DNA of 64,000 bases, taken from positions 25,482,001 through 25,546,000 of the forward strand of contig OX597821.1 in the NCBI GenBank assembly GCA_951406725.2, in the 5' to 3' direction. Origin of the DNA: Octopus vulgaris. Its lineage: Eukaryota. Position numbers and translations under genes: made by a program. Positions 3,660-61,483 of the stretch are shown here, in pieces (the first letter of the stretch is position 1; each line of letters begins with the position of its first letter). Below the pieces are notes generated by a model. That model was not told where the DNA came from, searched no databases, and saw only the letters and a program-made list of their open reading frames with translations.

Positions 3660-3987
3660 GGCATCTTGGGCAAGTGTCTTCTGCTATAGCCCCGGGCTGA
3701 CCAATGCCTTGTGAGTGGATTCGGTAGACGGAAACTGAAAGAAGTCTGTCGTATATATGTATATATATGTGTGTGTGTGTGTCTGTGTTTGTCCCTCTAG
3801 CATTGCTTGACAACCGATGCTGGTGTGTTTACGTCCCCGTCACTTAGCGGTTCGGCAAAAGAGACCGATAGAATAAGTACTGGGCTTACAAAGAATAAGT
3901 CCTGGGGTCGAGTTGCTCGACTAAAGGCGGTGCTCCAGCATGGCCGCAGTCAAATGACTGAAACAAGTAAAAGAGTAAAGAGAGAGT
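3659..3987 (+). mobile_element. SINE family A, 5'-truncated
   Basis: Near-identical to 58673-59020; starts directly after a (CA)n(TA)n tract. Confidence 0.9.
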
Positions 3988-10857: not shown

Positions 10858-11330
10858 ATATACTGGTCATCAAATCTAAGTAGAGATTTCAAACTTAAAA
10901 TCTTCAAATCCACAGTCGAACCAATTCTACTATATGGCTCAGAAACTTGGACGTTATCAACAAAGTTTGAGGGGCAGTTGGATGGAACCTACACTTGCCT
11001 CCTTATGAGGGCTCAAAATCTCTTGTGGAAGCGTCATCCAACCGAAGTACAAATATATGGGAAATTACCACCTGTATCATCTCTTGTGAAAGGTAGGAGA
11101 GTCCAGTTTGCTGGACATTGTTGTAGAGCTAAAAACGAGGTAGTTTCTACTCTTCTCCTCTGGAAGCCATCTGCTTGCGATACCAGAGGGCTCACACTCT
11201 CCTACCCTGATGTAATCTCCAGGGATACAGGCATCCAGCAACAGGACCTCCGTAATGCTATGATGGACCATGACGTCTGGCGTAACATAGTAAATTCCAT
11301 TGTCACGACCACGGTCGAACAATGATGGTG
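10858..11330 (+). mobile_element. RTE-clade-like LINE 3' fragment (5'-truncated)
   Basis: Reads ...KLKIFKSTVEPILLYGSETWTL...LDGTYTCLLMRAQ...RRVQFAGHC...; LLYGSETW and FAGH are motifs of the post-RT region of RTE-type ORFs; ends in a (TGA)-type tail. Confidence 0.85.
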
Positions 11331-11471
11331 AAGGAGTACAACTATGGCGTTGGTTAAGGAGCTGAGCTGTAGTAGAAATATGATGTGAACAAAACAATAG
11401 AGTGATGTATCCAGCTATGTCAAGAGTTATTCAATCCTTTGCATTATGAACTGTAATTCAAAACTCTATAC

Positions 11472-28945: not shown

Positions 28946-29287
28946 TGCGTGGCATCTTGGGCAAGTGTCTTCTGGTATAGCCCCAGGCCGACCAAAGCCT
29001 TGTGAGTGGATTTGGTAGACGGAAAATGAAAGAAGCCTGTCGTATATATGTATGTGTGTGTATATGTTTGTGTGTCTGTGTTTGTCCCTCTAGCATTGCT
29101 TGACAACTGATGCTGGTGTGTTTACGTCCCAGTCACTTAGCGGTTCGGCGAAAGAGACCGATAGAATAAGTACTGGGCTTACAAAGAATAAGTCCCGGGG
29201 TTGATTTGCTCGACTAAAGGCAGTGCTCCAGCATGGCCGCAGTCAAATGACTGAAACAAGTAAAAGAGTAAAAGAGAGTAAAGAGTA
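28946..29287 (+). mobile_element. SINE family A, 5'-truncated
   Basis: Matches the family A body and tail. Confidence 0.9.
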
Positions 29288-29500
29288 TGGGATTTCTCTC
29301 TGAATGATTTTGCAGGTGGTGTGGCACAAGGAGAAGTAAAAAAAAAAAAAGAAAAAAAAGAACTTGACAAAGTCACTGGGTGGCAAGATGCATAGTGTGG
29401 GAAAATGACAAGGGATGGGTAACATGAATGGGTTCAGGTAGATGGTAGTGAAGCCAGGTAGTTCAGGGAAGGAGTTGCTGACACAGCTCACTGCAGTAGG

Positions 29501-29863
29501 AAAATATATGCTCTAAGAGTGTTAAGGAATGTATTTCACTAGAACAATTAATTATATGCTTACAAGGGCTAGATAGGCATCTCCAACTAGCAAGCCATAT
29601 TACTCCAGACTGAAGACGAGCAAAGACTCAGAAACTAGTCTCTGGATGCTGGCTTAACTGGGTGGGGGTGCTTGTCTCCCCCTTGTAAACATAAGGACAC
29701 AGGAAATGTGTCAAAATTGACAGGAAGCGGTGCTGCTTCCTAGGGCTAAATAGCAGTAGTATTATTCTCTTCATGAGACTGTCACATTAAGTTGACAGCA
29801 TACAACTACTTTATCGTATCACTACTGCAAATATTTCTCTAAGAGATTTAGAAATGTATTATT
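29501..29863 (+). mobile_element. Hammerhead-containing non-coding element (retrozyme-like), copy 1
   Basis: Homologous to 48248-48638. Imperfect terminal direct repeat (CTCTAAGAG at 29511 and 29837, period 326 nt). Multiple hairpins downstream of the ribozyme. Confidence 0.7.
29592..29655 (+). ncRNA. Type I hammerhead ribozyme motif (copy 1)
   Basis: Stem I TCCAGA(29604-09)/TCTGGA(29641-46); core CTGAAGA(29610-16); stem II GAG/CTC with loop CAAAGA and a C.A mismatch at its base; GAAAC-TA-GTC with predicted cleavage after C29640; TAC bulge and distal AAGCCA/TGGCTT helix. Confidence 0.85.
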
Positions 29864-29883
29864 TCTATATAAATATGTATATG

Positions 29884-29924
<41 letters not shown>

Positions 29925-36825: not shown

Positions 36826-37454
36826 TAATTGTCTTCAAATATACATTGTGAACAAAAGTTGGTGCAAATTATTTACTAAATTATATAATTTAATTATTTT
36901 TCTGTATATGTTTCAGTAGTGGTAAAAAAATATTTATTCAATTCTTATATATTAACATACCCCTTATTCTGAACATCCCACCCCTATTTTTTATCTGTAT
37001 TTTTCCTTTCTCTTTATTCTGTATACTTTCACATCTGTTCATTTTGTAATCCTCCCCCCCTTTTATTTTGTATACCCTACCATACTCCCTATTCTTCATT
37101 TCATTAATATTTTTGAAGACTTCTCAAATATTAAATAGAGAATGAAAAAGAAATATGTTTAAGGGCCAAAAGCATATGGAATGAAGAATACGGAGTATGG
37201 TAGGGTATACAGAATAAAAAGAGGAAAAATTACAAAATGAGCAGGTGTGAAAGTATACAAAATAAAGAGTAAGGAAAAATACAGATAAAAAATAGGGGTG
37301 AGATGTTCAGAATAAGGAGCTATGTTAATATGTAAGAATTGAATAAATATTTTTTTACCACTATTGAAAAATATACAGAAAAATAATTAAATTGTATAAT
37401 TTAGTAAATAATTTGCACCAACTTTTGTTCACAATGTATATTTGAAGACAATTA
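36826..37454. repeat. Long inverted repeat / fold-back (possible TA-flanked MITE)
   Basis: Arms 36826-37104 and 37176-37454 (about 279 bp, roughly 90% identical by eye), 71-nt spacer; begins and ends with TA. Confidence 0.9.
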
Positions 37455-44444: not shown

Positions 44445-45655
44445 TATTAAGTCATCCCATAAATAATGCAGGTTTTTTTATTTTCAATTGCATAAACTAA
44501 ACTAGGGTAGTAATTTTACCTTGATCTTTTAGTGCACGCTTTGAAGAGTGCAGTTTGATTTTAACAGTTATTTTTTCAAAAAAGTGTCAAAGGAGCATAT
44601 TCGGCATATTTTGCTTTATGAGTTCAATAAAGACAACAATGCAATGGAAAGTGCGATGAATATTAATGTAGTACATGGGGATCCCACAATAAGCCTAAGC
44701 CAATGTCAACAGTGGTTCCAGAAATTCCAAGCTGGAAACTACAAACTAGAAGACAAGCCTTGTCCTAAAAGATCTGTAGAGCTCAATGAGGATGTCCTGC
44801 AAACTTTCGTGGAACAAAATCCCATTGTAACTGTTGAGGAACTAGCAGAGAAGCTTGGATTTGGTCATTCAACCATTCATTAACACCTGTGTGCCATTGG
44901 GAAAGTCAGCAAATTGGGTCAATGGGTTCCTCATAAAATTTCTGAGTCTAATCACATGTAGAGAGTGAACGTGTGCTCTTCTTTGCTGTCACATCTCACA
45001 AATGAACCTTTTTTTTGGGGACTGAATAGTGATTGGTGATGACAAATAAGTTCTCTATAAAAACGTCAAGCGCTAAAGACAGTGGGTAGGGAAAGAAGAA
45101 ACACTGGCACCCCAGGCTAAAGAAGGTCTTCACCCACGTGTTATCTGTTCGGTGGGATATGTATGAACGGTTTAGTCCACATAGAACTTTTAAACCCAAA
45201 CCCAACGATAACAAAGGAGATTGACTGTGAGCAGCTTGTGTAGCTTAGGTCAGTGCTAGAAGAAAAATGACTATCTTTGGTTTCAAGATGAAAGGTGTGC
45301 TTCCATCCGGATAATGCTTAGCCACATACAGTGAGGATGATATTAAGGCTGGACTGGAGCAGATTGAATGGAAATGATGCCTCACCCACAATATTTAGCA
45401 GACATTGCCTCACTTGATTATCCACATTCTTCAAAATCATTTGGACAGAAAAAATACAAATTCTGCAAACGAGGTCAGAACATTACTGGAGGAGTATTTT
45501 TCATCACGGTCAAGTGAATTTTAGAAGAAGGGTGTTTCAAGCCTACCAGACAGATGGAAGAGCATTATAGGAAATGAAGGAAAGTATATGTTAGATTTAA
45601 AAAAAATTTGCTTATCTTAATTATGAAAAATAAAAGAACTATAAAAATACCGCTC
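44445..45655 (+). mobile_element. Near-full-length defective mariner transposon
   Basis: ORF 44548-44883 is a mariner HTH domain (HIRHILLYEF...WFQKF...LED.P). Downstream are WVPH, IVIGDDK, FHPDNA*PHT and HPQYLADIASLDY (YSPDLAPSDY-like) motifs with stops and frameshifts. TA at 44445 precedes the left TIR. Confidence 0.92.
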
Positions 45656-48247: not shown

Positions 48248-48638
48248 TTTAGAAATTCAATATTTCTTATTTTGATAATCAGTGAATAAACTTCACTGAA
48301 TATAAATATATACAATTACAAAGTCGAGGCAAATATCACCGGCTGACCTGTGTCTGCTACTCTAGGCCGATGAAGGACAACGATCCTGAAACACGGTGTC
48401 CCTAGATGCAGTTCCGGCAGCCGGGGGTGTTTATCTCCCCTTCGTATATGTATAAAAGGACACAGGGAAAAAATGTGTCAAAGCTATCAGGAGGCGTTCG
48501 ATGCCTCCTAGGGCTATACAGCGGTGGTGTACCCCCTACTGTCACGTTCTTGTTAGATTGACAGTATACAACCATTCTATCGCCCCACCACCGTACATGT
48601 CTCTACGAGAGATTTAGAAATTCAATATTTCTTATTTT
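48248..48638 (+). mobile_element. Hammerhead-containing non-coding element (retrozyme-like), copy 2
   Basis: Identical 26-bp direct repeat TTTAGAAATTCAATATTTCTTATTTT at 48248-48273 and 48613-48638 (period 365 nt). Same order of hairpins as copy 1. Confidence 0.75.
48339..48424 (+). ncRNA. Type I hammerhead ribozyme motif (copy 2)
   Basis: Stem I TCTAGG(48361-66)/CCTAGA(48401-06); core CCGATGA (U4C variant); stem II AGGA/TCCT with loop CAACGA; GAAAC-ACGGT-GTC with predicted cleavage after C48400; TAC bulge; distal helices CTGC/GCAG and CCGGCTG/CAGCCGG. Confidence 0.85.
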
Positions 48639-53678: not shown

Positions 53679-53912
53679 TAATCACTTTTATTAGGTTTCA
53701 TTCATTGGACTACAATACATCGGGGTACTACACTCAAGTGTTTGACTCACCATATCAAACCCAATACTCAATCTACTATTTATCTAAATATTTTTTTTTA
53801 AATCAAATAGCTAAGTTTTAATGTTTGTCAAAAAAGACTACAACTCCATACACCATGTTCACTGGTATACAAAAATACCAGTATGTGTGCGTGTGTGTGT
53901 AAATGAATTCTT

Positions 53913-54280
53913 CATCATCATTGTTCGACCGTGATCGAGACAATGGAATTTACCATGCTATGCCAGACTTCACGGTCCATCATAGCATTACGGAGGTCCT
54001 GTTGCTGGATGCCTGTATCCCTGGAGATTACATCAGGGTAGGAGAGTGTGCGTCCTCTGGTATTGCGAGTAGATGGCTTCCAGAGGAAAAGAGTAGAAAT
54101 TACCTCTTTTTCAGCTCTACAACAATGTCCAGCAAACTGGACTCTCCTACCTTTCACAAGAGATGACACAGGTGGTAGTTTCCCATATATTTGCATTTTG
54201 GTTGGATGGCGCTTCCACGGGAGATTTTGAGCTCTCATAAGGAGGCGAGTGTAGGTTCCATCCAACCGCCTCTCAAGCCT
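53913..54280 (-). mobile_element. RTE-clade-like LINE 3' fragment, same family as 10858-11330
   Basis: ORF 53918-54265 differs at about 19 of 114 aa from ORF 10978-11325; (TGA)n tail; 9-bp target-site duplication TGAATTCTT at 53904-53912 and 54283-54291. Confidence 0.9.
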
Positions 54281-54339
54281 AGTGAATTCTTAGTGAACCA
54301 AGCAGGTTTTCAAATATTTGAAATGCAATGTATACCCTA

Positions 54340-60622: not shown

Positions 60623-61483
60623 TACAAGTTGTCAATAGGTATCTGGACTGTTGCCATAGTAACGAAGCTAAAGCACACAGAGTGAAGCTGCTCAGCAAAG
60701 ATTGACTTTGAAATCTGCCGTGTATATGTACTAAGTTTTAATGTTCTAGCTCACTTTCGCTGTTTATGGCAGTGCTTGAAAGGAAGGTGTGTAGTGTGTG
60801 ATTGTCACAGTGACCATAACAGAGAAAGTTGTCATGGCGATACCTGCTCAGAGGCCTATGCAAAGTTGCAGAAAGTGTATGGAAAGGAGTGTATCAGCCG
60901 CACAAAAGTGTAGGAGTGGTTCAGACGTTTTCAAGATGGTCAAAAACATGTTGATATTGAGGAACGTTCTGGGAGACATGCAACCAGCAGAACTGAGAAA
61001 AACATCGCAGATGTGCATGCAGTCATGAGGGGAACTTGTCAAATCACCATCCATGAGTTATCAGAGGATGCGCAGATTATTTACGGTTCAGTTCCGTCCA
61101 TTATCACTGATGATTTGGGTACAAGATGCTTGTCTGCCAAGTTTGTGCCAAAATGCTTTCAGCTGACCAAAAGGACATTCAGGTTTCAGTTGCACAAGAT
61201 CTTGATTGTGCTGAAAACGATAAAAAATTTTCAAAACCTTGCATAGGCCTCTGAGCAGGCATCACCAAGCTTTAGGCAAAATTTGATGGAGATTCTCTGC
61301 CACGATCAATGCAACAATCACACGCTACACACCTTCCTTCAAAGCCCTGCTGTAAACAGTGGAAGTGAGCTAGAGCGTTAAAACTTGGTTTGCATACACA
61401 GCAGAGTTCAAGCAGCTTCACTCTATCTGCTTTAGCTTTGTTACTATGGCAACAATCCAGATACTTATTGATCAGACCACATG
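60623..61483 (+). mobile_element. Mariner-derived element with long (about 190 bp) inverted ends
   Basis: Remnant KLQKVYG...EWFRRFQDG...ERSGR...ITIHELSE...LSAKFVPK. Left TATCTGGACTGTTGCCATAGTAAC...GAAGGTGTGTAG matches the reverse complement of right CTACACACCTTC...GTTACTATGGCAACAATCCAGATA. Confidence 0.85.

Follow-up and report, generated by a model that had tools for sequence, protein, structure and literature searches.

The element designated copy 1, at positions 29527..29868 on the forward strand of the 64-kb stretch of Octopus vulgaris DNA analysed here (the window), is probably a dispersed, high-copy, non-coding retrozyme of the metazoan non-LTR type with a unit of about 355 nt, likely inserted in trans by the reverse transcriptase of a Penelope-like element (PLE). 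All coordinates are window positions on the forward strand. The sequence-only reading had called the element retrozyme-like, and its hammerhead, unit size, GC content, self-pairing and copy number fit this description. Sequencing depth, joints between units and loose ends define copy 1 proper as one family unit that lacks about 13 nt of AT-rich linker at its 5' end. It is 342 nt long with a GC content of 39%, it is non-coding, and no open reading frame (ORF) of at least 90 aa in the list for the window overlaps it. In public sequencing runs the depth leaves the single-copy level in the bin 29523-40 and drops again in the bin 29865-82, with loose ends at 29867/68. The start had formerly been placed at 29501; high-copy depth begins only at about 29527. 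A (TATG)n/(TA)n microsatellite follows directly 3' of the element, and inspection of the sequence at 29526/29869 shows no simple short target-site duplication.

The window is AT-rich, with 27-43% GC per 2 kb, and contains many microsatellites and dispersed SINE-like repeats, which we take to resemble octopus SINEs. One of these, at 28950-29290, is a young SINE-like copy, 93% alike to 3752-3979 and one of four in the window; a second SINE-like family, ending in (GAT)n, has seven forward-strand copies (22082, 24248, 27161, 31865, 35324, 41435 and 56780). A mariner transposase fragment is located at 44545-44883 (+; Pfam HTH_48, E 7e-19). A long inverted repeat at 36826-37454, with 134-nt arms that are 97% complementary and inner 102-nt arms, is MITE- or foldback-like, and another at 60708-61411 has 119-nt arms that are 80% complementary and 466 nt apart. 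A dispersed pair of 374-nt repeats, 10960-11333 and 53910-54283, is 91% alike on opposite strands, and a frame overlapping it gives a weak DUF6451 match.

A second member of the family, copy 2, was found by BLAST and nhmmer at 48248..48638 (+). It consists of one unit of 365 nt to which a perfect terminal redundancy of 26 bp is added (repeat spacing 365; 1.07 units) and has a GC content of 42%. An nhmmer search of the window with both copies gave no third copy; the other matches were of the long stem to itself on the reverse strand or had E >1. No unit adjoining copy 1 was detected in that search either, and the window holds two separate copies with no array containing two ribozymes.

Four of 24 public sequencing runs were aligned to positions 29361-29885 at 80% likeness: X1 (DNA-type contigs) and X6 (probable RNA contigs) from organism A, and X10 (DNA-type contigs) and X24 (raw RNA reads) from organism D, a species related to that of the window. 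The depth of the flank is flat from 29361 through the bin 29505-22, at 64.8 in X1 and 27.7 in X10. Over the 19 bins of the element it exceeds the flank 9-7,222 fold in X1 and 16-24,040 fold in X10, and it collapses after 29868. The family is a high-copy one, with thousands of copies, the depth itself not being a copy number. At least seven head-to-tail joints lead from 29864-68 to 29527-73 with 13-35 letters between; those onto 29527 come from 29866-68 and have 13-15 letters between. The seven listed joints give unit lengths of 355, 355, 355, 351, 351, 349 and 330 nt. The family unit thus measures about 355 nt, which makes copy 1 one unit less about 13 linker bases. A unit of 326 nt had been claimed; the joints give 330-355 nt, six of the seven falling at 349-355 nt, and the spacing in copy 2 is 365.

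The letters inside the head-to-tail joints resemble the linker of copy 2, which carries the joint of unit end to unit start intact with the same linker. Such joints occur in the DNA of both organisms (X1 and X10) and in five of the 846 X24 RNA reads of the family. They are rare, with a depth in X10 of about 220 compared with about 190,000 at the 3' end, a figure in which diverged linkers would be under-counted, and the short contigs are too short to show two whole units in tandem. The motif TCAGT is conserved in 6 of 10 joint rows that have letters between and at 48280-48284 of copy 2, just before the position of the 5' junction of copy 1. It presumably resembles an initiator motif, and transcription could start there. 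An exact 20-base motif had no matches in metagenome contigs.

The main 3' end of the family, at 29861..29868 (+), is common to copies 1 and 2, as seen from loose ends, the alignment with copy 2 and the sequence itself; heterogeneous loose ends lie at 29867/68 in 136 X24 reads and 24 X1 contigs. Loose ends also define a second common 3' end at 29811..29814 (+), just after an AC-rich stretch, and copy 1 extends beyond it. At 29811/14 they are found in 37 + 43 X24 reads, 23 X1 contigs and 39 + 23 X10 contigs, with an agreement of 0.45-0.62, and the X10 depth falls there from 627,000 to 195,000. Past this point many members continue into (AT)n or A/T-rich unique DNA. The two clusters are 53-57 nt apart among the best 24 of 536 loose-end rows, and none of those 24 lies at the cleavage site. 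The end at 29811-14 may be a second priming site of the PLE type or may mark a separate short subfamily. Depth falls steeply towards the 5' end, which fits 5' truncation and in part divergence, because 72 X24 reads carry a homologous, unaligned 5' arm at 29601. A different permutation point had been proposed for copy 1; in fact both copies stop at the same 3' place and the 5' ends alone differ. The proposal that the junctions fall in the AT-rich linker and away from the cleavage site at 29640 is upheld, the 5' junction being 113 nt upstream and the 3' junction 228 nt downstream, and the near-fixed 3' end of the family agrees with the preferred priming region suggested at the same time.

The type I hammerhead of copy 1 spans 29592..29655 (+), and the same architecture is found in copy 2. 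Stem I is formed by TCCAGA (29604-09) and TCTGGA (29641-46), 6 bp, and is followed by the core CTGAAGA at 29610-16. Stem II, C-GAG-CAAAGA-CTC-A at 29617-30, has three pairs with C.A at its base. The segment GAAAC-TA-GTC (29631-40) contains the palindrome ACTAGT, and stem III is a palindromic helix of 2 bp. A TAC bulge at 29601-03, in a TAC/T internal loop, and a distal AAGCCA/TGGCTT helix complete stem I. The core, the 6-bp stem I, the C.A mismatch closing stem II, the TAC bulge and the distal helix had been named by the sequence-only reading, and all are present. The canonical metazoan hammerhead is described as having helices I, II and III of 6, 4 and 1-2 bp, the last with a palindromic loop, and dimeric cleavage is favoured in it because helix III is weak (PMC4209133); copy 1 matches this published form. 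The hammerhead is real and, judged by its motifs, of canonical type I shape, with a predicted cleavage point after C29640. Motif anatomy and covariation are the basis of this assignment, because Rfam called no hammerhead: nothing in the 64 kb matched at gathering score, and in the surroundings of copies 1 and 2 no hammerhead was called at E values up to 10.

The C.A mismatch had been regarded as the only evident lesion of copy 1. Copy 1 has a lesion of its own at 29599-29600, where it has AT and both 84-97% of the family in the public runs and copy 2 have GC. The family GC pairs with 29648-49 beside the bulge, and the AT of copy 1 weakens that helix. At 29614 the family has T in 84-98% (CTGATGA), and the A of copy 1 is a private change at a variable position. 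The base of stem II itself appears to be a family trait. G at 29617 is below 5% in X1, X6 and X10, and the textbook G-C pair is therefore not the family state. T is present at 29617 in 5-22% (79% in X6) and at 29630 in 17-25% (72% in X6), and no letter restoring the pair is found among the best 40 of 176 variant rows, those displayed appearing to be the ones that reach about 72% in some run. To judge by the displayed variant rows, C.A is probably a common pair among family members. As a control for a cleavage test, repairing the stem II pair is probably ill-chosen, since the G-C pair is not the family state. An axolotl retrozyme with U.U at the base of stem II still cleaves (PMC7229834). In copy 2, the core at 48367 is CCGATGA (U4 to C), and stem III, ACAC-G-GTGT, is a longer palindrome. 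The perfect 26-bp redundancy of this copy suggests a younger insertion in spite of the U4C change in the catalytic core.

The hammerhead is presented at the tip of a long stem, 29560..29688 (+), with arms at about 29560-29591 (5') and about 29656-29688 (3'), as predicted by RNAfold and by the consensus fold with copy 2. Three conserved structural blocks follow in the 3' half at 29696..29828 (+), supported by compensatory changes in the consensus fold: a GACACA/TGTGTC hairpin, a 9-bp hairpin at 29722-41 and a long-range helix of about 29753-60 with 29821-28. The stretch 29501-29863 folds better than its shuffles (z -6.6; 0 of 100 as good), as does copy 2 (z -7.5), while the 81-nt hammerhead stretch alone is not above shuffles (z -0.6). 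Both strands fold about equally well, and folding energy is uninformative on the strand.

Copies 1 and 2 are identical at 226 of 338 aligned columns (67%), and this divergence with its compensatory changes agrees with the earlier suggestion that they represent different subfamilies. The hammerhead architecture is common to both, with two compensatory pairs in stem I and two in stem II. For a test of covariation, pairs were predicted from one copy alone and scored on the other against a null; the sample is two sequences and the null takes sites as independent. Of the 81 pairs of copy 1, 43 are unchanged on copy 2, 8 remain paired with a change on one side, 13 are compensatory, 16 are broken and 1 falls in a gap. 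The 13 compensatory pairs compare with a null mean of 3.9 (P 0.0002) and the 16 broken pairs with 27.8 expected (P 0.003). The 100 pairs of copy 2 give 14 compensatory pairs against 5.5 (P 0.0009) and 16 broken against 31.3 (P 0.0002). A count of 18 compensatory pairs in 81 for the consensus fold was set aside, that structure having been fitted to the same two sequences. The pair 29768/29776 is a further compensatory one: copy 1 has T-A where 96-99% of the family have C-G. When 21 majority letters of the family are placed on the fold of copy 1, 5 preserve or strengthen a pair, 4 would break one if its partner stays as it is, and 12 are unpaired. A possible kissing-loop palindrome at 29715-18 (AATT in copy 1, AGCT in copy 2, often GGCC) was dropped, the family letters being too rare: C at 29718 is only 28-37% in the DNA runs and G at 29715 only 14% in X6.

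These changes bear on the possibility that the family is a satellite or other DNA-level repeat, spread through recombination or a rolling-circle DNA route, in which the hammerhead is incidental. In its favour, the present analysis gave no RNA circle, cleavage product or target duplication. However, compensatory changes, single changes of the G.U type and a catalytic core preserved across 33% divergence argue against it, as do dispersed copies with fixed 3' and variable 5' ends, and we consider this explanation very improbable.

The segment directly upstream of copy 1, 29502..29526 (+), resembles 29829-29851, and an imperfect terminal repeat had been described here, its segments being 29502-35 and 29829-60, 325-327 nt apart. 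The likeness is above chance. With the first 9 bases of the element fixed, none of 25,220 random flanks reaches the score, and for the flank alone in any register 57 of 25,220 do, these windows overlapping; pure chance is disfavoured by this test. The last 8-9 bases of the repeat segment 29502-35 belong to a repeat internal to the family linker. Over the first 24-25 bases of that segment the depth is single-copy (64.8 in X1 and 27.7 in X10) with no X24 reads, and no family read or contig with the 326-nt junction occurs among the aligned records of the four runs.

One contig of organism D, X10 record 9, has 1,358 letters and a depth of 27.7, and it aligns without gaps to 29361-29525, differing at 16 positions. 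It then continues for 401 letters that are not listed on the element, where a 340-nt piece would rank among the longest displayed. Seven of these 16 positions are not listed and could lie within 29502-29525, and there are 10 joints beyond those listed. We read this contig as an orthologous site without the element body, at which 29502-29525 was already in place; on single-copy depth and this contig, the segment probably pre-existed at the site. The repeat proposed earlier is accordingly retained as a likeness above chance, and its membership of the element is probably to be given up. An orthologous empty site carrying the repeated segment had been named as the evidence that would speak against terminal redundancy; this is found in part, the D contig carrying 29361-29525 and then leaving the window sequence. 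The same contig extends 792 letters upstream of 29361 unbroken, and organism D may also lack the SINE-like copy at 28950-29290.

The likeness could be explained in three ways: by a target duplication, long and diverged, inside an older 3' remnant, by homology-guided joining of the 5' end, or by a true redundancy followed by a slip of 30 nt and by loss of the body in D. In the last case copy 1 would have been inserted as more than one unit, 29502-29535 would be its terminal redundancy, and the spacing of 325-327 would have arisen by slippage between two AATGTATT linker motifs. The arithmetic is correct, since 355 less 30 is the observed spacing. The upstream segment is also closer to the 3' segment of copy 1 itself (score 24) than to that of copy 2 (15), and copy 1 departs from the family majority (80-99%) within 29830-29841 at 29830, 29832, 29835 and 29841, all four of which agree with the upstream segment. 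However, an empty site should leave the window sequence at about 29501, and the D contig fits through 29525. In copy 1 the two segments disagree in 6 of 34 columns, whereas copy 2 has identical ones; no other aligned record has this junction, and a second event, the loss of the body in D, would be needed. We regard this explanation as improbable, and a segment that was in place before the insertion of copy 1 is preferred.

In X24, 846 of 12.9 million reads belong to the family, of which 583 are less than 90% alike. The two mate directions are equally represented, 82% of the reads extend into sequence unlike the element, and read starts and ends do not pile up on it in this run. The family sequence is present in RNA, largely within longer or diverged molecules. 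The joint spanned by five reads is the same one found in DNA, and reads of 150 nt cannot separate a circle from a tandem transcript. Past 29867, the 136 reads have a consensus agreement of 0.6 and are not simply AT-rich; this sequence may come from a single host transcript that is well expressed or from a parent element of greater length.

As to cleavage, circles and the identity of the helper, we infer the following route. Source loci with head-to-tail units would be transcribed, and cleavage by the ribozyme would be mainly dimeric, given that the palindrome of stem III has only 2 bp; this could give unit-length linear or circular RNA. AT-rich or microsatellite DNA would serve as the target nicked by a helper enzyme, and copying would start inside the RNA at 29867-68 or 29811-14, away from the cleavage site. 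It would stop at variable points, just under one unit in the case of copy 1 and 26 nt beyond one unit in the case of copy 2. Both junctions are far from the cleavage site, and the template would therefore not be a cleaved linear monomer; a circle and an uncleaved tandem transcript have about even chances. The circular template that had been suggested is possible but not needed, as a PLE-like enzyme primes internally on uncleaved RNA in vitro (PMC11167929). Copy 1 is likely a dead-end monomer, unable to release unit RNA alone, because it has only one ribozyme.

Purified PLE protein is reported to nick AT-rich DNA and to prime at two internal sites in an AC-rich stem-loop; this priming leaves the genomic 'tail' signature and needs no hammerhead cleavage (PMC11167929). 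PLE-type priming agrees with what is seen in the family, namely a pair of fixed 3' ends, AT-rich surroundings and 5' ends that vary, although the end spacing of 53-57 nt exceeds the 30-40-bp PLE tail. O. vulgaris is reported to have 31 recently active Penelope-like families (PMC13282606). In the window, 38 of 56 ORFs, including those nearest to both copies, were scanned against Pfam and gave no reverse transcriptase or endonuclease/GIY-YIG match; the 18 left out are mostly microsatellite or SINE sequence, and decayed frames below 90 aa would be missed.

The same features raise the question of whether the copies are simply solo pseudo-LTRs (pLTRs) or 5'-truncated ends of an autonomous PLE. Traits of PLEs are seen in the fixed 3' ends, the presence of two end points, the adjoining microsatellite and the fall in depth towards the 5' end (10.1101/2021.04.23.441226, PMC11167929, PMC3846280), and the preprint of Li et al. 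derives retrozymes from such PLE termini (10.64898/2026.07.22.740005). On the other hand, the unit end joins the unit start in the DNA of two organisms, and this joint is intact in copy 2. Metazoan PLE hammerheads are described as minimal, while that of copy 1 is canonical (PMC4209133), and the scanned ORFs contain no frame with reverse transcriptase and GIY-YIG beside the repeat, as is typical of an autonomous PLE. A solo pLTR is unlikely on this evidence, and a retrozyme mobilised in trans is preferred. A more specific proposal, which we put forward tentatively and hold to be possible rather than probable, is that the family is a SINE-like, mostly dispersed retrozyme that records two-site PLE priming, with insertion sometimes guided by homology to its own older 3' remnants. 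If true, it would provide evidence from junctions across the genome that animal retrozymes are moved by PLE reverse transcriptase, and head-to-tail arrays could arise by in-register insertion, without the copying of a circle.

It is useful to compare copy 1 with the known systems. A partial literature search found no description of a hammerhead, retrozyme or Penelope family from cephalopods or octopus, though supplements may list a relative, and no description of junction features for animal retrozymes; the word 'ribozyme' is absent (0 occurrences) from the available text on repeat annotation in O. vulgaris (PMC13282606). Plant LTR retrozymes, described as carrying type III hammerheads in LTRs of about 350 bp with PBS/PPT and 4-bp duplications (PMC7761336), are likewise non-autonomous elements with a hammerhead. 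Unlike these, copy 1 has a single type I motif, and no LTR pair or LTR layout is seen. With PLEs such as Poseidon of Anolis (PMC11167929) and Penelope of Adineta (PMC3846280), the family shares the type I hammerhead and ends located off the cleavage site, and also two preferred 3' ends, one of them past an AC-rich stretch, AT-rich targets and partial tandems; 5' joining without target duplication is reported for them as well (PMC11167929, PMC3846280). However, copy 1 has no reading frame, its hammerhead is canonical and not minimal, and its ends are spaced by 53-57 nt instead of 30-40 bp.

Li, Clavereau and Pollet describe evenly dispersed 'solo' monomers as common and as offspring unable to transpose, and they tie retrozymes to PLE pLTRs and propose PLE dependence, arguing from co-occurrence and phylogeny (10.64898/2026.07.22.740005). 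Copy 1 is a dispersed monomer of this kind, for which PLE dependence is likewise proposed. With one hammerhead it falls in the monomer class, an 'active locus' being defined there by at least two consecutive units, each with a hammerhead (10.64898/2026.07.22.740005). The study differs from the present one in that its available part contains neither molluscs nor junction mapping, and no matching pLTR was identified for copy 1.

The closest likeness is to the metazoan non-LTR retrozymes of coral, mussel and axolotl (PMC7229834), whose units are reported as 150-450 bp with GC below 50%, and 350-390 bp in mussel. Copy 1 has the canonical hammerhead, unit size, GC content, non-coding character and highly self-paired RNA of this class, and the family shares its type I motif, self-paired non-coding unit and thousands of copies. 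The weak palindromic helix III is like that of axolotl HHR_Amex1, and the mismatch at the base of helix II has its counterpart in the U.U of HHR_Amex2, the axolotl form that still cleaves (PMC7229834). Unlike these retrozymes, the present family is seen here as dispersed monomers and apparently truncated copies and not as tandem arrays, and it has two fixed 3' ends, which are not described in the available part of PMC7229834; the likeness described here is one of features. The mobilising enzyme and circular template of animal retrozymes are still presented as a hypothesis (PMC7229834; 10.64898/2026.07.22.740005). Copy 1 itself is ordinary and probably inert. This mobilisation is made testable by junction mapping in its family, whose copies number thousands, are dispersed, end at fixed 3' points and differ in presence or absence between related species.
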